Below, piece by piece: positions 13,499-24,672 of a stretch of DNA of 64,000 bases. Where the stretch lies: positions 68,624 to 132,623 of IMG/VR virus record IMGVR_UViG_3300035696_000013; one strand, written 5' to 3'. Source of the DNA: a virus. Each line of letters starts with the position of its first letter. The first letter of the stretch is position 1. The notes under the pieces were generated by a model. It saw only the letters and a list, made by a program, of their open reading frames with translations. It ran no database searches and was not told the origin of the DNA. A program made the position numbers and the translations under genes.

Positions 13499-14633
13499 GC
13501 AAGTTGCTGAGCTATTTTGTGAACGAATTAACAAAATTTTTGAATCCGAACAAACATTAGAAGCCGAATTCAAACGTAATTTTGAAAACCTTCCTTTCTC
13601 TCGTACAGATCACTGGCAAGCAATTTTGTATCGTGTCTTTAGAGATTGCTGGATGGAAAAGGGGCCAGCAGTTAAAGCCGAACCTACTGGCTATGATCGT
13701 CTAGCTGTACTTAAACAACTTTGTCCTATGCTGGACTACAATTTGTTCTCACAAGTGTTGTTGAATCTTCAGACTTACAATGGTTTAGCCTATCAAACTG
13801 CTGATGCTGAAAAAGAGATTGAACATTTAAAATCAGCTTGGGCCGAGAAACAGTATAAACTTGATCCTTTTGCTCCTAAAGTGAAAATGCTCAAGATTGC
13901 AGCAACAGCAGAAGAGCAAGAATTCAATACAGTTCTAAGCGCCATCCGTTCTCTCAGAATCATAGCTAACTTTACACCTATGATTAGTTTTCGAGTGTCG
14001 CCAAAAGGTTCAACTCCTGCCTTTGCCGACAGCAATAATGTCAGTATGCTAGGAATGGGAGCAGATAAATATCTAAAATTGCTGTCTTCGTTGGAAGCTT
14101 ACTACTTAATCTGGGAACCGGGTAGATTTATATCGGCTCAGCAGATGGGAGATGCAACTCCTGAGGGAATCAGATTCTTTGCACAGGGCATTCCTTATCC
14201 GTTTGTTTCTAAGTCTGGTGGGGAAATTCTTCAGGAAGTGTTGTTTGCTCGAAACTTGATGTATACAATCTTTAGAGCAATTGATGTCACTAGTACAAAT
14301 CTTATCCTTTTGCCGAGAATGAATTCTCTCTTAGTTGTAACGGATAAATCCAATGTAACAGTTAAACAATTACTCAAGAATTTGGAAGAGTATTACCCAA
14401 CGTTGAAAGTTCAAATAGGAAGCCGGATTCGTTCAGTAGAACAAGAGCATCCAATCTCTCGAGTTCCCGATCCTCCGGTATGGGCTATGAATGCAGCAAA
14501 GCAGATTTTTGGGCAACTTCCTCTTTCTCAATTTGACGGAACAAAGGATATGTTGGATCCTATTTCTGCTGCAAGAATAATTGAAAAAGAATGGGAAATT
14601 TTTTACGCAGAAAGAATTTCTGTCGAGCATTGA
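13464..14633 (+). CDS. hypothetical protein
   Basis: 389-aa ORF in the operon. Confidence 0.65.
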   Translation: MVLMNEMLGMYKQVAELFCERINKIFESEQTLEAEFKRNFENLPFSRTDHWQAILYRVFRDCWMEKGPAVKAEPTGYDRLAVLKQLCPMLDYNLFSQVLLNLQTYNGLAYQTADAEKEIEHLKSAWAEKQYKLDPFAPKVKMLKIAATAEEQEFNTVLSAIRSLRIIANFTPMISFRVSPKGSTPAFADSNNVSMLGMGADKYLKLLSSLEAYYLIWEPGRFISAQQMGDATPEGIRFFAQGIPYPFVSKSGGEILQEVLFARNLMYTIFRAIDVTSTNLILLPRMNSLLVVTDKSNVTVKQLLKNLEEYYPTLKVQIGSRIRSVEQEHPISRVPDPPVWAMNAAKQIFGQLPLSQFDGTKDMLDPISAARIIEKEWEIFYAERISVEH

Positions 14634-14871: not shown

Positions 14872-15214
14872 ACATTGCATTACGCCTGAGGGAAAATTCA
14901 GAAGCGAAGATTTCACTGATATGATAGAAAATCTCAGCGATGCTTATGAAGCATGCGAAGAAATGGTTTTCATGATTGATTTTCTCGCTGATGGTGATAG
15001 CTGTCGCATAGAGAATGCATTAGAAGCTTTTTATGCTTCTAAACAAAAAGAAATTGAAATGAAAAATGACTCAGAATTTGGTACAATAATTGGAGACGTA
15101 CATGGTGGTCAAATCATTTTAACCGAAACAGGTCAAAAGGTCTACCTCTCAATGGCTTTTAATCCCCTCACTGCTCAGCAACTGAAGGAAATTAAGGAAC
15201 AAATGGATGCTTAA
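14855..15214 (+). CDS. hypothetical protein
   Basis: GGAGG SD, 119 aa. Confidence 0.6.
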   Translation: MAGSYKHCITPEGKFRSEDFTDMIENLSDAYEACEEMVFMIDFLADGDSCRIENALEAFYASKQKEIEMKNDSEFGTIIGDVHGGQIILTETGQKVYLSMAFNPLTAQQLKEIKEQMDA

Positions 15215-15423
15215 GGATTCTTAGAAGTAAATGATAATAACAACTGTTAAACTCTATCCCGAACTTTTGATGTGGCCAGATGATTCATTTACATTAGAAT
15301 CCATTTGCCCTAAAGATTTTACAGAAACACCGAAAACACCAATTTTTCGTGGTTTTCCATATATTGGACCTGAAGTTGATTATAGAACAGTACAATGCAA
15401 TCTTTAAAATCAATCGCTAACGA

Positions 15424-15454
15424 ATACCTGATTTTTCGCTGTCTGCCGTATTAT
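15424..15454 (+). promoter_or_regulatory. phage promoter (TACCTGA-N16-GTATTAT) of tRNA array 1
   Basis: same bipartite motif and spacing as at 16611, 18752, 19391, 19673, 30247 and 54008. Confidence 0.7.
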
Positions 15455-15460
15455 ACGAAC

Positions 15461-15532
15461 ATGAACACGAATCTAAATTCGCACTTGTATACGCTGCTTA
15501 ATGGCAGCTGCGGCGAGATGTTGCTGGCCTAA
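15461..15532 (+). CDS. leader peptide MNTNLNSHLYTLLNGSCGEMLLA (putative attenuator of the Tyr/Leu tRNA array)
   Basis: ATG 6 nt after the -10 box (leaderless); Leu codons CTA, TTG, CTG, CTT and Tyr TAT match the downstream tRNAs. Confidence 0.7.
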   Translation: MNTNLNSHLYTLLNGSCGEMLLA

Positions 15533-15556
15533 AAACACTAGCAACCGATCGCAAGC

Positions 15557-15586
15557 AGCCGCCCGATGTGGCGGCTTTTTTATTTT
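15557..15586 (+). terminator. attenuator terminator
   Basis: AGCCGCC-cgatgt-GGCGGCT followed by TTTTTATTTT immediately before tRNA-Tyr. Confidence 0.85.
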
Positions 15587-15588
15587 AT

Positions 15589-15676
15589 GGAGTGGAAGTC
15601 ACAATGGTGTGACAGGAGGCTGTAACCCTCCCGCCCCTTGTGGGCACGATAGGTTCGATCCCTATCCACTCCACCA
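15589..15676 (+). tRNA. tRNA-Tyr(GTA)
   Basis: GGAGTGG/CCACTCC acceptor, CTGTAAC loop, long variable arm, GTTCGA, encoded CCA. Confidence 0.9.
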
Positions 15677-15739
15677 AGCTACAACGGTCCCGGTAGTCCT
15701 CTTCGGGCAACTGTGCGGGAATGGGAAAACCGCAACTAT

Positions 15740-15828
15740 GCCAGAGTGGTGGAATTGGTAGACACACTACGCTCAGAACGTAGCGGCAATTAACAGCCGT
15801 GCGGGTTCGAATCCTGTCTCTGGTACCA
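15740..15828 (+). tRNA. tRNA-Leu(CAG)
   Basis: cloverleaf, CTCAGAA loop, long variable arm, CCA. Confidence 0.92.
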
Positions 15829-15886
15829 AGTTTGATATATAAGGACATATATCTGTAGTAAAATGATATAATGTCGTATATACAGA

Positions 15887-15972
15887 GCGCCTGTGGTGAA
15901 ACGGCATACACGCTAGCTTGAGGTGCTAGTGATCGCAAGATCGTGGAGGTTCGACTCCTCTCAGGCGCACCA
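15887..15972 (+). tRNA. tRNA-Leu(GAG)
   Basis: GCGCCTG/CAGGCGC, TTGAGGT loop, CCA. Confidence 0.92.
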
Positions 15973-15992
15973 AAATCCTAGTATTAATCTGT

Positions 15993-16484
15993 ATGGATAA
16001 GAAATCCAAACAGTTAGGCATGAATTTTAGCACAGCATCTGCAAGATTAGATCGTATGATATTATTCATGCTGGTGAAAGAGTGCAATCGTGATACATGT
16101 TATCGTTGTAATAAGAAAATTGAACGATACCAGGATCTAAGTACGGAGCACAAAGAACCTTGGCAGGACATTGATTCAGCTTTGTTTTGGGATTTGGATA
16201 ACATTTCATTTTCACATCGTAGCTGCAATGCTGCAGCTGGAGCACGAGGCAGGTTGCCTGGAAATGAAAAAGCCTCTAAAGCTCCTTTTGGGACCGTATG
16301 GTGTTCGGGGCATAAAGATTATTTGCCTAAAGAAAATTTTCATCGGGAAGCTCGTAATAAAAGTGGTTTTTCAAGCTTGTGCAAAAAATGCTATAAAGAA
16401 CGAGAATATCCTGGTAGTTATGGCCGAGTGGCGAAATTGGTAGACGCGCATGGCTTAGAACCATGTGAGCTTGATCACTCGTAG
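15993..16484 (+). CDS. HNH-family endonuclease (homing-type) inside the tRNA array
   Basis: CYRC, STEHKEP, N.SFSH.SCN, C-terminal Zn-finger; 3' end overlaps tRNA-Leu(TAG). Confidence 0.7.
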   Translation: MDKKSKQLGMNFSTASARLDRMILFMLVKECNRDTCYRCNKKIERYQDLSTEHKEPWQDIDSALFWDLDNISFSHRSCNAAAGARGRLPGNEKASKAPFGTVWCSGHKDYLPKENFHREARNKSGFSSLCKKCYKEREYPGSYGRVAKLVDAHGLEPCELDHS

Positions 16485-16510
16485 GGGTTCGAATCCCTTC
16501 TCGGCCTCCA
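16422..16510 (+). tRNA. tRNA-Leu(TAG)
   Basis: GGCCGAG/CTCGGCC, CTTAGAA loop, CCA; discriminator is T. Confidence 0.88.
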
Positions 16511-16516
16511 AAGATT

Positions 16517-16603
16517 GGCCGAGTGGTGGAACTGGTAGACGCGGTAGCCTCAAAAGCTACTTCTCGCAAGAGAGTGGGGGTTCGACTCCCTCCTCGGTCA
16601 CCA
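16517..16603 (+). tRNA. tRNA-Leu(CAA)
   Basis: cloverleaf, CTCAAAA loop, CCA. Confidence 0.92.
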
Positions 16604-16657
16604 AATTATCTTACCTATCCCGTTGTTATCCTCCGTAGATTAAACATGGAGGATTAG

Positions 16658-17062
16658 ATGCTGTACTTCTCAAACAAGTGGGACATACTTGACATGGAAG
16701 ACCTCGCAGGAGGTCTCCAAATAGTCAGTCAGGGTCGTAGTAATCCTCCTATTGTCTTAGTTTACGTCTTCAATAAAGAAAAACAAATCTATTTTTACGA
16801 GATCTTTCGATGCCCGGTTACTCTAATGGGATTGGCCGAAGATCCCGATGCAATCATGGAAGCCAAATCAGAACAGGAAGCAATTGATATCCTGAACGGC
16901 ACCAGTGATGTCGCTGCGGCTGATATACTGATTGACCTTTCTGAAGGTCGTCCAGCTGGAGGCAGCAAGACCAAGCTACTCTTTAAGGGCACTCATCCCG
17001 CTACAAAGACAGCCGAATGGGTTCAAGCTTATTTGCAATCCATTGTCCCAGAAGTTTTATAG
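16658..17062 (+). CDS. hypothetical protein
   Basis: GGAGG SD and promoter motif at 16611. Confidence 0.6.
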   Translation: MLYFSNKWDILDMEDLAGGLQIVSQGRSNPPIVLVYVFNKEKQIYFYEIFRCPVTLMGLAEDPDAIMEAKSEQEAIDILNGTSDVAAADILIDLSEGRPAGGSKTKLLFKGTHPATKTAEWVQAYLQSIVPEVL

Positions 17063-17072
17063 GGAAAAGAAT

Positions 17073-17450
17073 ATGACCATCCTCGTTATCGACGATGAAG
17101 AAGATGTTTTGAAGGCTACGACTCGATATTTGAAAGATGCAGGATTTGATGTTTACGGTTCTCTAGGGGGAGAGAAAGGTGTTGAGGATTATCGTGAATT
17201 AGTACCTTTTAACAAGCGATTTGATTGTGTCATAACTGATTACAACATGTACGATATGGATGGTGTACATGTTGCTCTAGCTATTCGGAAAATTGAACCG
17301 AAACAAAAGATTATTATTTTCACAAATAGCTCAACTTTGGCTCAAACCTTTCACATTTATGGATTGAATGGTGTGAAAATAGTTGATAAAGGGAAGGGTG
17401 CTGGTACTTTGTTGACGGAGTTATGTGCTTTATTAGTGGAGTTGCAATGA
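17073..17450 (+). CDS. stand-alone response regulator receiver (CheY-like)
   Basis: ILVIDDE, DCVITDYNM..MDG, IIIFT, K. Confidence 0.8.
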   Translation: MTILVIDDEEDVLKATTRYLKDAGFDVYGSLGGEKGVEDYRELVPFNKRFDCVITDYNMYDMDGVHVALAIRKIEPKQKIIIFTNSSTLAQTFHIYGLNGVKIVDKGKGAGTLLTELCALLVELQ

Positions 17451-17773
17451 AAATCGAATTGTGGGAAATCCTGGTCCCGGTTAGGAACAAAGATGTTCCT
17501 ATCATCAAGCGTTTCCACAAGCGTTGGGATGCTAAGGTTCGAGCCATTACCGGAGGTCTTACTATTCGTCCGCCTGAAAAGGGGCAATGGCACAATTCTA
17601 AGATTGGTGCCGTAGAAGCAGAACAAATGATTCCGGTCAAGATTGCTGCTACACGAGAGCAGATGTTGCAAATTGGTCAAATGACCGCCGAATACTACAA
17701 TCAAGAAGTGGTCATGTTCTACCGTATCAGTGATGAAGTCATCTTCATGCGAAAGGATGGAAGCCTGTCATGA
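17447..17773 (+). CDS. hypothetical phage protein
   Basis: overlapping ATGA start. Confidence 0.65.
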   Translation: MKIELWEILVPVRNKDVPIIKRFHKRWDAKVRAITGGLTIRPPEKGQWHNSKIGAVEAEQMIPVKIAATREQMLQIGQMTAEYYNQEVVMFYRISDEVIFMRKDGSLS

Positions 17774-18081
17774 TGCCTCCTTGGGATATGACGAAGCACG
17801 AGCAAGCTGCGTTTGCTAGCAAGATTGCTGATGAACGTTATGCAAAAGTCATGAATTTGACTCCAAAGGCACGATTCAATTATTTAACAGCAAAAGGATG
17901 GGAACGAGTGAGCAAGTATACTGGTTCCGATTATATGTTTGTAACCTGGCGCAATCCCAGGAAAGAAAAAGGTCCTTGGGCTGTTATGAAGCAAACGCAA
18001 GCAATTCGATGCCAGATTTGGTACGACATGGAAGATGAAGGTTTGCTGATTCGAGCGAAAGAAGGATTGACAATTCTATGA
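17770..18081 (+). CDS. hypothetical protein
   Basis: coupled ORF. Confidence 0.55.
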   Translation: MMPPWDMTKHEQAAFASKIADERYAKVMNLTPKARFNYLTAKGWERVSKYTGSDYMFVTWRNPRKEKGPWAVMKQTQAIRCQIWYDMEDEGLLIRAKEGLTIL

Positions 18082-18299
18082 AGTTTAAGCCGGGTCAATA
18101 CTACTACACATGGTACGATAATGGCATTGGCATGACCACTGTTTTCTGCCGTGTAGTGAAAGTGACTCCGAAAATGGTCATCATTCGTGGCGAAGATTGT
18201 AAAAATACAAAGCGATGGATGCAGAGTTACTTCAAAGCTAACTATAGCCGGGTTGGCCCAAGTGATTGGCACCCGCAGATTCCGTTGGGAGAGGAGTAA
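18078..18299 (+). CDS. hypothetical protein
   Basis: coupled ORF. Confidence 0.55.
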   Translation: MKFKPGQYYYTWYDNGIGMTTVFCRVVKVTPKMVIIRGEDCKNTKRWMQSYFKANYSRVGPSDWHPQIPLGEE

Positions 18300-18305
18300 A
18301 ATAAC

Positions 18306-18560
18306 ATGTATTTTGATCCAGGTATTATTTTTGTTCTAATCATTTTAGCTGTGCTTGTGTTCGCTTCATTTGCTGGAAGTGATCGTGACCCCGGACTTGA
18401 TCGTAGTATGGATTGGCACCGTCGTAATGGGGATTATCGTGTGCAGTATCTCGATACAATTGATCCTCGAACGGGAAAATTTGCGGTTTCACAACCATTT
18501 ACATACGAAGTCGCTCTGTCTTATGCTCATATGTTCAACGGGAGAGTTATCTCCAGATAG
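18306..18560 (+). CDS. small membrane-anchored protein
   Basis: GAGGAG SD, N-terminal TM. Confidence 0.55.
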   Translation: MYFDPGIIFVLIILAVLVFASFAGSDRDPGLDRSMDWHRRNGDYRVQYLDTIDPRTGKFAVSQPFTYEVALSYAHMFNGRVISR

Positions 18561-18799
18561 GCAGGTCAGTCATGGCTTTCTATGTTGATCTCTCGGATGA
18601 ATGTAAGGATTTTAGCAAAGTTTGGATTTATATAGTAGCAGTGGTGGTAATCATGTTTGGGTCCGTTTGTGGTCTCATTCTCTGGCTAATTAGCAGGTAT
18701 TCTCCTCTCCTCCTTCGCCTACTCGCACAACACAAGGGATGAAAAACTTCGTTACCTGATAAGTTAACTTTTTAAGTAGTATGCAAGTGAGGAGTTACA

Positions 18800-19381
18800 A
18801 TGAAAAAGTTGTCTACCTTGGCTTTGCTGATTTTATTTTCATCTCTTTCTGTGCTCGCTCAAAATGTAAAACCACCACTTCCTCCTAAGCAATTGTCCTT
18901 CAAGGGACCAATTAAAGTTGCTATCGGTAACGAGAATGTTGACCCGCATGTAAAGGCTCAATTTCTCAACGCGATCGGCAATTCAGAACGATATGTCTAC
19001 ACAACTGACGATGAAACAAAAGTCATCAATGTATTTCTAGTCTGTTCTCACCCTTTAAATGGTAAAAATGAATCAATTGGAACAGTATGTGCTCTTACAG
19101 TTAACTACATTTCTCCTCTCTTTCGTGGAATTGCAATTTCTCTAGATATTTTTGTTCTCGCTTATCCTGATGATGTCAATGTTGGTCAAAAGGTATTCGA
19201 AAATGTGGTAGAACTAACAACAAATGAGAAATTAGACGAGGCCGAGGCTTTGGCTGAAAATGTGGCTACTATTTATTACAATTTTGGATTGGACGATTGC
19301 AAATCACCCGCCAAGAAACCCGATACCAATCCTGAACAGGAACCCATACTTCCTCCCGACACTACTATTGCTAAGACCTAA
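18800..19381 (+). CDS. secreted/periplasmic protein
   Basis: Sec signal MKKLSTLALL..VLA-Q; own promoter at 18752; GAGGAG SD. Confidence 0.7.
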   Translation: MKKLSTLALLILFSSLSVLAQNVKPPLPPKQLSFKGPIKVAIGNENVDPHVKAQFLNAIGNSERYVYTTDDETKVINVFLVCSHPLNGKNESIGTVCALTVNYISPLFRGIAISLDIFVLAYPDDVNVGQKVFENVVELTTNEKLDEAEALAENVATIYYNFGLDDCKSPAKKPDTNPEQEPILPPDTTIAKT

Positions 19382-19427
19382 TTTTCTTGTTTACCTGATT
19401 TTTCCGTTTATCCCGTATTATACAAGT

Positions 19428-19657
19428 GGAGAAAGCGGGACCAGTAGGTTCTAAATTCTTCCCCCGAAATTGGTGACGACCTGCTTAAGGGTTGCGCAGC
19501 CCAAGTTGCCGAGGACGGGATTATAGTCCACTGTAAGAGCAGGGGTTTCTAGAGCCTTGTGGTGGACAGATAACTAAGCTAAGGTATGGAACATCAGACG
19601 CCAAATTGCGGCGTCGAGGAAGCAGGGTTAGTGAAGATGCTGACCCTGCTTTTTCTT
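19428..19657 (+). ncRNA. stand-alone ~230-nt structured RNA
   Basis: lies between the promoter at 19391-19421 and the terminator at 19621-19657; nested stems; no good + strand ORF. Confidence 0.55.
19621..19657 (+). terminator. intrinsic terminator
   Basis: AGCAGGGTTAGT-gaagat-GCTGACCCTGCT followed by TTTTCTTT. Confidence 0.85.
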
Positions 19658-19672
19658 TTAGAAAGAATTTCT

Positions 19673-19703
19673 TTACCTGATTTTTCAACTTTCCACGTAT
19701 TAT
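19673..19703 (+). promoter_or_regulatory. phage promoter of tRNA array 2
   Basis: TTACCTGA-N16-GTATTAT. Confidence 0.7.
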
Positions 19704-19815
19704 TAGAACGACAGGCCAGAATTTCCGTCCAGCAATAGAGCGCAAGCGGATATTGCACTGGATCGGCGATCAGCGGAAGAGGACCAGCCATCCTTACTGA
19801 GCCTGAGAGTAAAAT

Positions 19816-19878
19816 ATGCGATTTATGAACCCAATGATGCGACCGCCTATGTCGCTCGGGGATGGTACTGGTGGTTAA
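19816..19878 (+). CDS. leader peptide MRFMNPMMRPPMSLGDGTGG (putative attenuator of the Pro/Met/Phe tRNA array)
   Basis: 5 Met, Pro CCA/CCG/CCT and Phe TTT in the first 12 codons; 3' half pairs with the downstream hairpin arm. Confidence 0.65.
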   Translation: MRFMNPMMRPPMSLGDGTGG

Positions 19879-19998
19879 TCATGTTTTGTGGTGATGATTA
19901 GCTCCTCAATGCCCCGAGCCGGAAATGGCTGCGGGGTTCCGCCTAAGTAGTTCCCTCCTGCAGTAATTTCCTAGCTCGGTTGAAAAGTTTAGATTTCT

Positions 19999-20072
19999 CG
20001 CGGAATCTTATAACGGAAGTATACACGCGTCGGAAGCGTGAGGTGGGAGTTCGATTCTCCCTTCTGCGACCA
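19999..20072 (+). tRNA. tRNA-Pro(CGG)
   Basis: CGCGGAA/TTCTGCG, CACGC-GTCGGAA-GCGTG, CCA. Confidence 0.8.
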
Positions 20073-20077
20073 AGTTT

Positions 20078-20164
20078 CGGGGTGTAGGCAGGTAAATGGT
20101 AGCCTTCCTGCTTTGGAGGCAGGTGTCAATTATGACCTTGGAGGTTCGAGTCCTCTCACCCCGA
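20078..20164 (+). tRNA. tRNA-Pro(TGG) with long variable arm
   Basis: CGGGGTG/CACCCCG, CCTGC-TTTGGAG-GCAGG, GTTCGA; CCA not encoded. Confidence 0.8.
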
Positions 20165-20208
20165 CTTTCGTGACTTCTTGAGTATTAGTAGAATGCTCAA
20201 GAAGGTTC

Positions 20209-20859
20209 ATGATAATGTACACTGTCTATAAAACAGTGAATTTAGTCAATGGTAAGTTCTACATCGGAGTCCATAAAACGGACAATCCGAATGATGACTA
20301 TCTCGGAAGCGGGAAGCTCATCATACGAGCCATTGAGAAGTATGGTCTTCAAAATTTCCAGAAAATCATTTTGGAGACATTTGATGATTTAAGATCAGCA
20401 TTCAAAATGGAAGAAGAACTTGTAGCAAAAGAATTAGGATTGCCTGGTTGCTACAATCTTCGTAAAGGTGGAGAAGGTGGATTTGATTGGATAAATCAAA
20501 AGAATCTCCATAGTACAAAAGAAGGATTAAAACGAATTCGAGAGTTGCAGGAAAAAGATCCTAATTTCTGGGATCAAATTTGTAAAAAGCGTAGTATGGA
20601 TAATCCCGATTGGGTAAAAGCTTGTTCAGAGAGAATAACTACTTTTGGAAGATCAAAAATTTTTAAAGGGCATAAGCATTCTTTAGAAGCTTTAAAGAAG
20701 ATTTCTGAAAAAGCAAAGATGCAAAAAGGCAAGCGCAATTCTCAATTCGGAACTTGTTGGATTTACAAAGATAACATAGAGCGAAAAATTAAGGTTGCTG
20801 ATTTGGCGATGTTTCTATCAAATGGATGGAAACAAGGTCGTAGAAGTTACAGGGCATAG
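20209..20859 (+). CDS. GIY-YIG (Seg-like) homing endonuclease
   Basis: VYKTVNLVNGKFYIGVH, YLGSG, YNLRKGGEGG, NUMOD-like GHKHS. Confidence 0.88.
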   Translation: MIMYTVYKTVNLVNGKFYIGVHKTDNPNDDYLGSGKLIIRAIEKYGLQNFQKIILETFDDLRSAFKMEEELVAKELGLPGCYNLRKGGEGGFDWINQKNLHSTKEGLKRIRELQEKDPNFWDQICKKRSMDNPDWVKACSERITTFGRSKIFKGHKHSLEALKKISEKAKMQKGKRNSQFGTCWIYKDNIERKIKVADLAMFLSNGWKQGRRSYRA

Positions 20860-20926
20860 CTTAGTCTGGTAAAGCGCGTGCTTGGGGTGCACGAGAGCGG
20901 AGGTTCAAATCCTCTTGCCCTGACCA
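20850..20926 (+). tRNA. tRNA-Pro(GGG)
   Basis: CAGGGCA/TGCCCTG, TTGGGGT loop, CCA. Confidence 0.9.
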
Positions 20927-20940
20927 AGTTTAGTTGTTGT

Positions 20941-21011
20941 GCCTCGCGATAGTCTGGAGAAGTTCGTAGCGGCTCTACGAATAGCTGGGTCAGAACCAGC
21001 GCGGGGAGCCA
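20941..21011 (+). ncRNA. aberrant tRNA-like RNA ending in CCA
   Basis: CCTCGC/GCGGGG acceptor, TTCGTAG/CTACGAA arm, GCTGG/CCAGC T-like arm, non-canonical loops. Confidence 0.5.
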
Positions 21012-21016
21012 AGTTT

Positions 21017-21093
21017 CGGAAAGTGGCTCAGCCTGGAAGAGCACACGCTTTGGGAGCGTGGGGTCGCGGGTTCAAATCCCGCCTTTCCGACCA
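21017..21093 (+). tRNA. tRNA-Pro(TGG)
   Basis: CGGAAAG/CTTTCCG, TTTGGGA loop, CCA. Confidence 0.92.
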
Positions 21094-21135
21094 AAGTTTG
21101 GTCAATCTCTAAGTATTAAACATTGGGAGATTGAA

Positions 21136-21624
21136 ATGGAACATGTACCGGGTATTGGGAAGATCACGGTTACAACGATAACGGGAGATCAACCCAAATG
21201 GGATTCTTCGAATCCCGATCCTGATTTTCGATATCGTGGGGCAGAAGGTACATTTGTAGACGAATGGCTGGCTCAGCATCCGGCTAGTGAGGAAGAAGCT
21301 GTAGAAGGTCTGACTTCAGATCGTCTAAAGGTAGCTTCAGGAGCCGGATACACACGAGGATTCGAAAAGGAAGCGGCTGAGATCTCAAGATACGGCTCTA
21401 TGGAAGAGTTTTATGCTTCGTTTGAGCATTGTGACTTCTTTGCCGATATGCCTGAGATTCCGTTCAAGTATCAGTTCTTAGTGGAGATGCACAGACGAGG
21501 TCGTTTGAGAAATTACGAACTGAATGAAGAGATTAAGGAAGCAAGTAGTAAACGTCAAATTACTCCTGCTGTAGAGCCGAAAAAGGCTCCAGTGATAAAT
21601 TTGGCAGCTGATTTTGATTTTTAG
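21136..21624 (+). CDS. hypothetical protein within the tRNA array
   Basis: GGGAG SD inside a hairpin; ATG at 21136. Confidence 0.6.
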   Translation: MEHVPGIGKITVTTITGDQPKWDSSNPDPDFRYRGAEGTFVDEWLAQHPASEEEAVEGLTSDRLKVASGAGYTRGFEKEAAEISRYGSMEEFYASFEHCDFFADMPEIPFKYQFLVEMHRRGRLRNYELNEEIKEASSKRQITPAVEPKKAPVINLAADFDF

Positions 21625-21627
21625 TAT

Positions 21628-21701
21628 GTCGGTATAGTTCAATGGTAGATCTGCGGTCTCATAAGCCGACGACAGAGGTTCGATTCCTCTTACCGATACC
21701 A
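21628..21701 (+). tRNA. tRNA-Met/Ile2(CAT)
   Basis: GTCGGTA/TACCGAT, CTCATAA loop, CCA. Confidence 0.85.
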
Positions 21702-21742
21702 AACTTTCTTTTTTGTTTTGTCAGATTAAGTAATAGACGTTT

Positions 21743-21819
21743 GCCGTCGTAGCTCAAGGTGCATAGAGCATCTGATATTTAATCAGAGGGTTGAAAGGCG
21801 CTACTTTCCGACGGCTCCA
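21743..21819 (+). tRNA. atypical tRNA-Lys(TTT)-like
   Basis: GCCGTCG/CGACGGC, TCTGA-TATTTAA-TCAGA (A33), T-loop GCGCTA lacks TTC; CCA. Confidence 0.55.
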
Positions 21820-21901
21820 AGTTTAAGGAGGAGATTCATGGCTACACCGGACATCACTACCCATACTGCGTAAAGTGTGGGCAGTCGGAAAGGTAAAGTC
21901 A

Positions 21902-22201
21902 ATGAATCATCCTCGCAGTCGCAGAGAGCGTCGTGCTGTACGCGAAGAAATTATACAGCATCGTAAGTGGATCGTTACCCGAATTTGGCACCGTGGCTCG
22001 TATTATAGTAGCAATGAGCGGGAACGAGAATGGCTCAGAAATTTTGAGTGGGGCAAGTACGCAAAGTACAATTTAAATTGCGGATGCTCAATGTGCCATT
22101 ATAGCAAGTATTATTCATGTAAGCGCAGACGTCGTTGCGCACTGAATAGAGCTAATTCACAGGCGGAATTTCGCCGGATGGATAAGTTAGCAGGACGGTA
22201 G
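21902..22201 (+). CDS. Arg-rich basic protein with CxCxxC
   Basis: RSRRERR, CGCSMCH; preceded by a uORF at 21838-21873. Confidence 0.6.
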   Translation: MNHPRSRRERRAVREEIIQHRKWIVTRIWHRGSYYSSNEREREWLRNFEWGKYAKYNLNCGCSMCHYSKYYSCKRRRRCALNRANSQAEFRRMDKLAGR

Positions 22202-22372
22202 CGATGAGCATTTTGACAATGCAAGAGAAGTTGCAAAAGACTCTTGAACTTTTTGGCGTCACTAGTATCAAGAGGATAGAACAAAGAAATGGAGATTTCT
22301 TTATTCATCGTATTGACGGTACGAATTGGGTGATCCGTCAAGGAAGTGGCGGCGTAAAGGCTTGTTAAGTTT

Positions 22373-22416
22373 TCGTGATGGCATATAGCTGAACTGGTCC
22401 GAATCCAGCATCACGA
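22373..22416 (+). ncRNA. mini tRNA-like RNA lacking an anticodon arm
   Basis: TCGTGATG/CATCACGA stem plus CTGG-TCCGAAT-CCAG T arm. Confidence 0.5.
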
Positions 22417-22505
22417 TAAAACTTTAGCAACTGGAACAGGAGGTGCCGGGATGCCAAACGAACCGGGACAAGTTTCCAGGTGCAAAGTTTAGCATGATTT
22501 CTGAC

Positions 22506-22589
22506 TGCGGGGACGTGCTCCGGGTGCACGTGAGACTCATAACCTCACGCCTTTGGCAAAGTGGCGTTCGATTCCCACCCCCGCTACCA
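22506..22589 (+). tRNA. tRNA-Met(CAT), initiator-like, extended variable loop
   Basis: 1:72 mismatch, GCGGGG/CCCCGC, CTCATAA, CCA. Confidence 0.75.
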
Positions 22590-22599
22590 AAATTTCTAT

Positions 22600-22677
22600 C
22601 GCGGAGTAGAGCAGCCAGGACAGCTTGCCTGCCCCATAAGCAGGAGGTCGGTGGTTCGAATCCATCCTCCGCAACCA
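22600..22677 (+). tRNA. tRNA-fMet(CAT)-like
   Basis: C1:A72 mismatch, CGCGGAG start, CCTGC-CCCATAA-GCAGG (C33), CCA. Confidence 0.85.
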
Positions 22678-22703
22678 AGGTTTGGTACACCATATTTAAA
22701 AGT

Positions 22704-23335
22704 TCCGGTTGGCCAGAGATGCCAAGCACCTCTGAGAGACGCTGGCGTCTCGCGCTAACCGAATCAATTTCGCTAGTGCTGTGACATTACAGCTTGTTTG
22801 CAGTGCACGTGGCAACCGGGCCGCACATCCGGACTAGCGATTTCTAGTTTGTGCGTCATGGGAGAACCGATGCCAAGAAATTATTGGTAAGTTTCCATGG
22901 ACTCGGCGGTACGAGAGCAGTAAATAAAATTGAATCCCTGGTATCCAGGCAACAAGATCGGTGGCAGACTTACAGGTAATCAATCCTGGTGCCTCGCCTT
23001 AATGGAAAAGCATCCAGCCGTCGCTCGTTGTCTGAATATCAGGGATTTGATTCGCTGCTCTTGGAATTTGTAGGTTTCCTGCTTCCTAAAAGCAGGTGGC
23101 GGAGTGGTCGGCGTGAGCGTTTCCTACTTCGTAAAAGTAGGTGATGGACCGATGTATCGTAGCCCCGTTTTTCACTTCGTAAAAGTGAAGATAGTCCCAG
23201 CCCTAATAATGACTGGGTGGTTGCTAAACCCCGCACGTTTCCAGACGTAAACTGGATGGTGGAGGCGACCTGAGAAATCGGGTCGCCCCAGTAGTTTTGG
23301 TGAAAGTTATGAATCGCAAACGCTACACAACCGGA
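22704..23335 (+). ncRNA. large structured non-coding region (one large RNA or an array of small RNAs)
   Basis: 630 nt with no credible ORF, dense stems and repeated hairpin motifs, between tRNA-fMet and tRNA-Phe. Confidence 0.6.
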
Positions 23336-23380
23336 GAACGCTTTAGTTGCTAACTCAGCAATTAAGTCGGTAGTCTGTGT

Positions 23381-23456
23381 CCGGTGGTAGCTGATGTGGT
23401 CTTAGCGTCGGTCTGAAAAACCGAAGATGGGAGTTCGATTCTCCCCCACCGGGCCA
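23381..23456 (+). tRNA. tRNA-Phe(GAA)
   Basis: CCGGTGG/CCACCGG, TCGGT-CTGAAAA-ACCGA, CCA. Confidence 0.9.
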
Positions 23457-23494
23457 AATCTTCTTCCTCAAGTTTACCCAGTATTACAGTCGAT

Positions 23495-24265
23495 ATGAAT
23501 CATTCCTTTGATCCAACTTGGAAAGTAGTTCCTATCTGTGATTATCAAAAGCTGGATGTTCGTCCCGAAGATCTCTTAAACAATGGTGATTTTCGCAAAT
23601 GCGAGACTTATCGAGGTGGCGGAGGATATGATCAGTTTCCTGCCATTTGTGAAAAACGATTTGGTATCCGTGCTCACGCTCAATTTGTTGTTCAACTTTA
23701 TGGTTGTAATTTAGATTGTCCTTACTGTTATGTCACTCGTTCGGGTGTATGGGGAAAGTGGAAATCCTATACAACTGAAGGACTAGTCCAAGCTTACAAA
23801 GACAGCGAACAGCAGATTTTCCATCTTATGGGAGGAGCGCCAGCAATCTATCTGAATCAATGGCCAGACTTGATTCTAGCTCTTCCCGATACAGCTATTT
23901 TTCATTCAGATTTCTTGCTAACAGAACACAAATACGACGAGAATATACTGCAAGTTCTTCGTTCGTTACAGACAGAACGCAAGATGTTATTCGCTGTGGA
24001 TATCAAGGGTGTAACGCCTGACAATTATGAAAGGAACACTCGTAAGTTGTTTAAATACAGCTTGTTCTGGGACAATCTGAGTAAGCTCGTAGACAATAAA
24101 ATTAACTTCTATCTCACTTTCACTAATCCGGATGAGAATTACTTACCCCTGTTTAAACTTTTCTTAGAAGGAGCGTTTGGAAGTCAGATATTAGACGACA
24201 GTTTTGTCATTTCTCTCATTCAATATCATACTGCTCCGTTTGTTGATTTCTTACCTATGAAATGA
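23495..24265 (+). CDS. radical SAM protein
   Basis: GCNLDCPYC (CxxxCxxC), LMGGAP. Confidence 0.75.
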   Translation: MNHSFDPTWKVVPICDYQKLDVRPEDLLNNGDFRKCETYRGGGGYDQFPAICEKRFGIRAHAQFVVQLYGCNLDCPYCYVTRSGVWGKWKSYTTEGLVQAYKDSEQQIFHLMGGAPAIYLNQWPDLILALPDTAIFHSDFLLTEHKYDENILQVLRSLQTERKMLFAVDIKGVTPDNYERNTRKLFKYSLFWDNLSKLVDNKINFYLTFTNPDENYLPLFKLFLEGAFGSQILDDSFVISLIQYHTAPFVDFLPMK

Positions 24266-24441
24266 ATTTCTACTTGATAGGTAGGAGGCACCTTTCTATG
24301 CTATCTATCTTTAAATTGGCACTTGAGTTAGTCGTTGCAGCTATTTTTGTAATAGCGGGCATCAAATTGGGCGCAAAATATCCCACTCTTTCAGCAAAAG
24401 TTAACACACTTTTGAGTTGGGCCAAGAAAGAAGTCTAATCG

Positions 24442-24672
24442 ATGTTGGCGCTTCTTCAAAGTGCAGCAGAAGTTGCAGCAAAACATAAGGCTGATCTTGA
24501 CGATCGTATTTTGCATTATGCCTTATTTGCTGGAGGAGCATTTGCTGTTTCCTTTTTCAAGATAGGATTCGATTACATAGCAAAACGCACTTGGGATAAA
24601 ATTGACGAAGAAGCTAAAGACATTAAAGAATTCAGGGCATGGAAGAAAGCCGGAAAGCCGAAAGCATCTTAA
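24442..24672 (+). CDS. small membrane protein
   Basis: single TM and basic tail. Confidence 0.5.
   Translation: MLALLQSAAEVAAKHKADLDDRILHYALFAGGAFAVSFFKIGFDYIAKRTWDKIDEEAKDIKEFRAWKKAGKPKAS

Follow-up and report, generated by a model that had tools for sequence, protein, structure and literature searches.

A codon-matched leader ahead of a phage Pro/Met/Phe tRNA block: a candidate translation-coupled RNA switch

Leader-peptide attenuators are known from amino acid operons such as trp, his, pheA, thr and ilvGMEDA, in which a short open reading frame (ORF) near the promoter carries an early cluster of codons for the related amino acid, mutually exclusive RNA helices (1:2, 2:3 and 3:4) can form, and the anti-hairpin strand lies just after the regulatory codons. 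Some of these attenuators are multivalent, thr combining Thr and Ile, and ilvGMEDA Ile, Leu and Val. Here, we describe a locus with a comparable layout that precedes a block of Pro, Met and Phe tRNA genes in an uncultured giant phage (record IMGVR_UViG_3300035696_000013). The window, that is, the whole stretch of 64,000 nucleotides that was analysed, comprises bases 68624 to 132623 of this 132,623-base record, which is about 41% complete; coordinates are window positions unless marked "genome", which refers to the whole record. Positions 19674-19998 may be the transcribed leader of the Pro/Met/Phe block, acting as a translation-coupled RNA switch, a reading that we favour tentatively, with a confidence just short of even. 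The features concerned, namely a promoter-like motif, a short ORF, its codon bias and a set of mutually exclusive helices, are real and jointly non-random.

While the locus shares the traits listed above with the attenuators of amino acid operons, it differs from them in several respects. The genes downstream encode tRNAs instead of biosynthetic enzymes, and the 3:4 hairpin has no U tract. Furthermore, segment 1 lies upstream of the ORF, segment 2 lies within the ORF before its stop codon, and a rod-like fold provides a fifth partner for segment 3. The trp attenuation mechanism is described in the excerpt of PMC4007540, which also describes attenuators of Deinococcus deserti with leader peptides translated from leaderless RNAs.

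In other aspects, the locus is reminiscent of mgtL/mgtA, corL/corA and tnaC, where a short upstream ORF with Pro codons is found, translation reshapes the leader and an intrinsic terminator is not needed (excerpt of PMC12360218). As far as that excerpt goes, these leaders respond to Mg2+, proline or tryptophan and have protein genes under their control, whereas tRNA genes are concerned here and Rho dependence is only a candidate. The trn operon of Anabaena offers a parallel at the level of the output, being an accessory tRNA array that is switched on when translation is impaired (excerpts of PMC8421152 and PMC10272220). Unlike the Pro/Met/Phe leader, it is under the control of a protein repressor, TrcR (excerpt of PMC10272220), and a term search of PMC8421152 returned no "attenuat-", leader, terminator or small ORF. 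T-box riboswitches are alike in that a leader RNA senses the status of tRNA through the choice of an antiterminator, but they need no ORF. A T-box or another known RNA family was rejected for this leader, as 19380-19998 has no Rfam match at E values up to 1.

Full-text searches covering few subscription journals and no supplements turned up no report of tRNA genes being controlled by a leader peptide. Leader-peptide attenuation as such is known; its use on phage tRNA blocks would be new. If the reading is correct, phages would use a textbook form of amino acid control to gauge specific tRNAs and to switch on matched tRNA sets. This would explain the sorting of tRNA genes into blocks, and it would become possible to test whether phage tRNAs are a regulated response to a lack of host tRNAs or to tRNA-cleaving defences.

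Layout of the leader and its codons

ARAGORN finds 27 tRNAs in the record, sorted in three blocks, and candidate leaders precede all three. The blocks and the leaders of the other two are as follows.

genome 53111-53215: GNN leader, ahead of the GNN tRNAs
genome 53690-55992: GNN+Cys tRNA block (ARAGORN)
15461-15532: Tyr/Leu leader, ahead of the Tyr/Leu tRNAs
15589-16603: block of Tyr and four Leu tRNAs, array 1 (ARAGORN)
19999-23456: Pro/Met/Phe tRNA block (ARAGORN)

The leader of the Pro/Met/Phe block contains the following elements.

19674-19703, + strand: promoter-like motif, with upstream box TACCTGATTT, 12 nt, and CGTATTAT with a -10-like TATTAT
19721-19770, + strand: 5' hairpin of the predicted leader with a GCAA loop, present in minimum free energy (MFE) and centroid folds; presumed to be functional
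19787-19802, + strand: segment 1, partner of 19854-19866 (duplex of -19.7 kcal/mol)
19805-19809, + strand: weak Shine-Dalgarno-like GAGAG, 6 nt 5' of the leader ATG
19816-19878, + strand: candidate leader ORF of 20 codons, MRFMNPMMRPPMSLGDGTGG, opened by the first ATG that follows the promoter motif
19854-19861, + strand: segment 2, GCTCGGGG, inside the leader ORF; candidate anti-hairpin strand
19873-19903, + strand: 10-bp hairpin over the stop codon TAA (19876-19878), in MFE folds
19912-19936, + strand: segments 3 and 4, a GC-rich hairpin closed by a GAAA loop, without a U tract (-16.5 kcal/mol)
19914-19979, + strand: rod-like alternative fold of 66 nt, with GCTCGG at 19974-19979 as the partner of segment 3
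19985-19990, + strand: AAGTTT spacer motif directly 5' of the first tRNA of the block

Since the ORF is defined by the first ATG after the motif, there is no freedom in its choice. Codons 1-12 contain five ATG as well as CCA, CCG, CCT and TTT; both its position and these codons, as first recorded in a reading made from the letters only (the sequence-only reading), were the same when reread. The block downstream comprises, with default ARAGORN settings, Pro(CGG), Ser(GCT), Pro(GGG), Pro(TGG), two Met(CAT) and Phe(GAA). When post-start codons are scored against the codons read by the tRNAs of the block, with background frequencies from 67 long ORFs, 8 of 19 belong to the block's own set (binomial p = 0.0019; 0.00053 if Ser is left out), a score equalled by 7 of 1174 small ATG ORFs. 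Four or more internal ATGs occur in 12 of these 1174.

The same holds, to different degrees, for the other two leaders. The Tyr/Leu leader has 7 of 22 codons from its own block (binomial p = 0.0053; 54 of the 1174 small ORFs score as high) and the GNN leader 22 of 33 (binomial p = 0.00013; 2 of 1174). In all six cross-comparisons of a leader with the full codon set of another block, p is at least 0.81, and Fisher combination of the empirical codon-match values of the three leaders gives P = 5.7e-5. The claim that leader codons track the anticodons of the array beyond chance is thus sustained. Whether leaders elsewhere might be unrelated to their anticodons, a possibility raised at the same time, has a mixed answer: the codons match at all three arrays, and only the own array each time, whereas the ORF that follows a further motif copy, at 21976, is unmatched.

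The promoter-like motif links the three sites as well. The pattern TACCYGAWWT, followed by 12-13 nt and a -10-like hexamer, has six strict matches in the 132,623-base record, all on the + strand.

genome 51785, + strand: strict motif site
genome 53075, + strand: strict motif site
genome 84048 (window 15425), + strand: strict motif site
genome 88015 (window 19392), + strand: strict motif site
genome 88297 (window 19674), + strand: strict motif site
genome 90599 (window 21976-22006), + strand: strict motif site inside the Pro/Met/Phe block, with a 13-nt spacer

Three of the six sit just upstream of tRNA arrays, and a related promoter pattern found no match in 100 shuffles. The first 13 bases of the 19674 motif are identical to those at 15425 (array 1) and 19392, in agreement with the earlier statement that the leader ORF is preceded by the same promoter type as array 1. 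Looser copies lie 5' of ordinary genes at 18754 and 54010. Because of the -10-like hexamer and the positions of its copies, the shared motif probably acts as a promoter.

Some of the other motif copies are associated with structured RNA. The copy at 19392-19421 leads into about 230 nt of RNA with pronounced structure (z = -3.78), closing with a strong hairpin and a T run at 19621-19660, 12 nt 5' of the 19674 promoter, so that 19392-19660 resembles a small RNA unit of its own or a gate placed upstream. A frame that begins with GTG 4 nt 3' of the -10 box of this copy (VEKAGPVGSKFFPRNW) contains two Pro and two Phe codons. At genome 51785-53070, more than 1 kb of structured RNAs, tRNA-like and other, lies 3' of a motif copy. 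Some of them look like tRNAs with large insertions, and an Rfam tRNA match is located at genome 52187-52271.

On the basis of these elements, a regulatory cycle can be proposed. RNA synthesis would begin near 19710 from the phage promoter, and the first AUG would open the 20-codon frame, the early codons of which are mostly Met, Pro and Phe. Without a ribosome, or with a ribosome that reaches the stop codon, segment 2 (19854-19866) would be masked or held by segment 1, allowing hairpin 19912-19936 to form. Upon scarcity of Met-, Pro- or Phe-tRNA, an early stall of the ribosome would leave segment 2 free to capture the 5' arm of the nascent hairpin. The choice of fold would then set the amount of RNA that reaches the tRNA genes. 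Because the hairpin is without a U tract, weak termination, pausing, factor-dependent termination or processing would be expected and not classic intrinsic termination. In this scheme, activity of the promoter, translation of the ORF and the effect of the hairpin are all inferred.

Competing folds and the output of the switch

The exclusive helices are supported by several comparisons with shuffled sequences. As had been noted, GCTCGGGG (19854-19861) is the exact complement of CCCCGAGC (19912-19919), the 5' arm of the hairpin; the duplex of the leader ORF with this arm (2:3) amounts to -18.3 kcal/mol, with P = 0.001 against 1000 dinucleotide shuffles. Pairing of segments 1 and 2 has P = 0.048 against 1000 shuffles and a pair probability of 0.72 in the full leader. 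The helix GGTTAATCAT (19873-19882) / ATGATTAGCT (19894-19903) does span the stop codon of the leader ORF, as the sequence-only reading had it; this stop-codon hairpin and the rod were taken from MFE strings. Hairpin 19912-19936 is among only five of that stability in 25-nt windows on the + strand of the 132,623 bases. In folds of the growing transcript, the 2:3 helix is part of the MFE structure when the RNA ends at 19921, and 3:4 together with 1:2 when it ends at 19940.

The layout is rare. A uniform scan took in the 1326 ATG ORFs of 10-45 codons present on the two strands; in 83 of them, a hairpin of -10 kcal/mol or better lies 10-50 nt 3' of the stop codon. ORF-to-arm pairing at P <= 0.01 was found in three of these 83: the Pro/Met/Phe leader, the GNN leader (for which none of 1000 dinucleotide shuffles paired as strongly) and a marginal hit inside coding sequence at 14591. 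A stricter scan agrees. As only two leaders and one marginal hit emerge, the layout is specific to the intervals that separate the promoter motif from tRNA blocks. The Tyr/Leu leader was passed over by the uniform scan (ORF-to-arm P = 0.1).

A number of observations weigh against the translation-coupled switch, and some of them speak for a different view, to which we attach a real chance, though one well under even. The RNA could be an untranslated, structured 5' leader, in which the hairpin or rod (19912-19979) together with the AAGUUU spacer constitutes a self-closing RNA unit and the codons of the ORF are coincidental. Such a unit might be cut out, or serve processing or stability, like other non-tRNA units in the arrays. 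The rod 19914-19979 dominates the full-length fold, where it replaces the 3:4 hairpin in the MFE structure (z = -3.33; 1 of 200 shuffles as stable) and leaves it a pair probability of 0.009. Furthermore, the AAGTTT-type spacer of the tRNA units is also present 3' of the rod. Of the two exclusive states, 3:4 is favoured over 2:3 by 6.4 kcal/mol, the leader structure did not flip when a simple ribosome block was imposed on the folding, and the folding energy of the whole leader is ordinary (z = -0.68 and -1.34).

The absence of a U tract points in the same direction. Only two U directly follow the 19912-19936 stem, whereas the phage's other terminators have at least five consecutive T within the 10 bases that follow the stem. 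The weak U tail remarked upon earlier is indeed found (tail TTCCGCCT, with 3 T in 8); a terminator at 19936-19945, however, is not supported, the hairpin not being an intrinsic terminator by sequence, as it is without a U tract. A terminator scan lists no site in 19704-19998, but the same scan missed the hairpin and T run at 19621-19660. Among the five strongest + strand hairpins, three are canonical terminators with T-rich tails, and those at 19912 and 23263 have no such tail. The latter (23263-23287), a very stable, tail-less GAAA-loop hairpin, precedes tRNA-Phe without a coupled ORF; therefore, hairpins of this kind may have another role, as the view of an untranslated leader would predict.

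A hairpin family "GAAAU-loop + AGTAGTT" comprising 19912 and 23263 was considered and dropped: both loops are GAAA tetraloops of the ordinary kind, and the + strand has 14 copies of AGTAGTT. With blastn-short, no similarity was found between the two hairpin regions.

The ORF has its own weak points. The GAGAG site pairs with an energy of -3.1 kcal/mol, and 34% of 600 random ATGs have a site at least as strong, which likewise suits an untranslated leader. The leader ATG lies about 106 nt from the -10 box, unlike the ATG of the other two leaders. As had been cautioned, the two CGA codons and AAC are without a cognate tRNA, none being found in the 132,623-base record, which represents about 41% of the genome; conversely, the Ser(GCT) tRNA called by ARAGORN finds no AGY codon to read in the leader frame. 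The copy of the motif at 21976 lies within a 108-codon ORF without a Pfam match, and the ORF that follows it (MSGNENGSEILSGASTQSTI, delineated by eye) has no Met or Phe codon beyond its start despite the CAT and Phe tRNAs downstream. Finally, 5-7 of 1174 random small ORFs match the codon score.

An untranslated leader would, however, need several coincidences at once: a chance codon match (p about 0.002-0.006), a chance 8-bp complement between the ORF and the hairpin arm (P = 0.001) that the equilibrium fold leaves unused, and a chance recurrence of the same architecture at the GNN array. The matching of codons to the own array only, at three arrays (combined P = 5.7e-5), also runs counter to it. 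We keep the translation-coupled switch as the favoured reading of the leader.

Its output could be of a more specific kind. If the translated ORF switches the fold, Rho-like termination or pausing might follow via the C-rich stretch 19937-19975, as with mgtL and corL, which we consider unlikely. Of the 39 nt of this stretch, 13 are C and 6 are G, in an otherwise G-rich strand (4.4% of windows are as biased), and the stretch is paired in the rod and free once the 3:4 hairpin forms. Control of Rho-dependent termination by an upstream ORF is established for mgtA, corA and tnaCAB according to the excerpt of PMC12360218. The C bias is nevertheless modest and extends over 39 nt only. In addition, structured tRNA transcripts are in general poor Rho substrates.

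The phage's other leaders, relatives and a case in another phage

The Tyr/Leu and GNN leaders (window 15421-15588 and genome 53075-53285) are closer to each other than to the Pro/Met/Phe leader. In both, the motif is followed by an ATG 6 nt after the -10 box, an ORF of 23 or 34 codons, an identical 11-mer, TAGCAACCGAT, and a canonical U-tract terminator. The three leaders have in common the motif, array-matched codons, ORF-to-arm complementarity and a hairpin 22-33 nt after the stop codon, while the leaderless ATG, TAGCAACCGAT and the U-tract terminator are lacking in the Pro/Met/Phe leader. The earlier statement that its architecture matches that of array 1 is therefore correct for the promoter and for the ORF/hairpin layout. 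It does not extend to the leader of about 106 nt, the absence of a U tract and the gap of 62 nt between hairpin and tRNA; at array 1, the hairpin has a T-rich tail and ends 2 nt 5' of the tRNA.

Alternatively, the Pro/Met/Phe leader might be an attenuator of the type present at the other two arrays that has decayed or become leaky, its U tract lost and the array expressed constitutively from the 19674 promoter. As in the GNN leader, the ORF ends with Gly-Gly-stop and pairs with the hairpin arm at about -18 kcal/mol, and the stem begins 33 nt after the stop codon (about 27 nt at the GNN leader). The T-rich tail of the GNN and Tyr/Leu leaders is absent. Continued selection is nevertheless indicated by the hairpin and the 8-bp complement, both of them intact and very stable, and we regard decay as very improbable.

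The idea of amino-acid-specific sensing modules ahead of tRNA arrays, put forward in the sequence-only reading, is partly supported: the competing helices and the codon match agree with it, the ORF is present but has a weak ribosome-binding site, and the terminator is lacking. It could be imagined that the phage sets a separate translated "test track" before each tRNA block, written in the codons of that block, which we hold to be possible but somewhat doubtful. With similar reserve, we envisage that tRNA sets are made on demand when the matching codons are decoded slowly, for example upon depletion or cleavage of host tRNAs. The Pro/Met/Phe module would in that case be a terminator-less sensor acting through pausing, factor-dependent termination or processing, a notion that we entertain with equal caution. 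The Pro/Met/Phe site is the weakest and least canonical of the genome's three leaders; its value is that, here, the layout of an ORF plus competing helices is found without a canonical terminator.

Relatives were sought in several collections. A search of a phage collection gave 198 matching records and no close relative; among the matches listed, each extends over only 2-3% of the query, and almost all of them fall on tRNA genes. No homologous leader was found in viral contigs with three neighbour proteins, an exact 32-base promoter stretch and two degenerate promoter patterns as queries. The sole relative from these scans (L001, 56% identity) has no tRNA in its 20.7 kb and no promoter motif. 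A scan of metagenome contigs gave nine loci with 56-77% identity; when eight of the nine were run through ARAGORN, L006 and L009 each showed a single tRNA, situated downstream of the match. In blastn of all 12 fetched loci against 15001-24500, the radical-SAM gene was the only match, and no leader was found. A looser promoter pattern gave one unconvincing site only in the fetched loci, in L001/L011. Over 15300-23500, contigs from two DNA runs (X1 and X2) do not differ from the window and supply no leader variant, and a 151-base contig in X2 of about 87% likeness covers only 19456-19561.

Two further phage records, LR756501.1 and Xanthomonas phage XbC2, were chosen only via tRNA similarity. The first, an unrelated public phage record of 735 kb, has a leader of the same general kind at one of its four isotype-sorted tRNA blocks.

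LR756501.1 leader (17372-17500 in the fetched locus L013), reverse strand of the record: 26-codon ORF MNFRIINMIQEQMQQIQNLIGGTISY ahead of Met/Gln tRNAs

A U-tract terminator begins 22 nt after the stop codon of this ORF and is followed by the Met/Gln tRNAs. Met, Gln and Ile(TAT) tRNAs, which lie within about 3 kb downstream, decode ATG, CAA, CAG and ATA; these four codons account for 10 of the 25 in the ORF (p = 1.8e-5), a score equalled by 2 of 254 small ORFs. ORF-to-arm pairing has P = 0.003 with an arm chosen by hand, and the uniform scan did not flag this leader (0 of 11 ORFs with hairpins in the locus). Its opening codons AAC, TTT and CGA are three codons that are also present near the start of the Pro/Met/Phe leader ORF. 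In XbC2, the tRNAs are scattered among genes and the uniform scan flags 0 of 31.

The tRNA genes of the block and their surroundings

The tRNA genes called in the Pro/Met/Phe block are the following.

19999-20072, + strand: tRNA-Pro(CGG) (ARAGORN; Rfam tRNA, 46.3 bits)
20078-20165, + strand: tRNA with a long variable arm, Ser(GCT) in ARAGORN; only 25.1 bits in Rfam, to tRNA-Sec
20850-20926, + strand: tRNA-Pro(GGG) (ARAGORN, Rfam)
21017-21093, + strand: tRNA-Pro(TGG) (ARAGORN, Rfam)
21628-21701, + strand: tRNA with anticodon CAT (ARAGORN, Rfam)
21743-21816: tRNA scored by Rfam (41.3 bits), without an ARAGORN call
22506-22589, + strand: tRNA-like gene with anticodon CAT and a long arm, called by ARAGORN at a relaxed threshold only, without a default ARAGORN or Rfam call
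22600-22677, + strand: tRNA with anticodon CAT (ARAGORN, Rfam)
23381-23456, + strand: tRNA-Phe(GAA) (ARAGORN, Rfam)

The list on which the sequence-only reading was built is largely recovered: Pro(CGG), Pro(GGG), one Pro(TGG), two CAT tRNAs and Phe(GAA) are all present. Its second Pro(TGG) corresponds to an alternative reading of the ARAGORN Ser(GCT) at 20078-20165, in which a different anticodon stem, drawn by eye, gives TGG, and its third CAT tRNA requires the relaxed threshold. The Rfam tRNA at 21743-21816 had been omitted. The anticodon loop of this tRNA reads TTA by eye, which would decode the stop codon TAA; TAA nevertheless terminates 52 of 88 ATG ORFs of at least 150 codons. The two tRNA-like genes at 20078-20165 and 22506-22589 combine long variable arms with Pro- or Met-type anticodon readings.

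Most tRNAs of the record encode the CCA end, after which AGTTT, AATTT or AGATT follows. The hexamer AAGTTT occurs 80 times on the + strand, compared with about 32 expected, and is found 3' of many tRNAs, which suggests that AAGTTT-type spacers may be a shared processing signal of the tRNA blocks.

The G+C content in the window is 40-49%, and a UvsX-like protein, a helicase and other phage proteins are encoded in it. HNH and radical-SAM proteins adjoin the tRNA genes. Finally, about 680 nt between the last CAT tRNA and tRNA-Phe (22700-23380) contain repeated hairpins and no credible ORF; a sub-threshold match to the wcaG RNA (36.1 bits, with a cut-off of 42) lies within it at 23070-23155.

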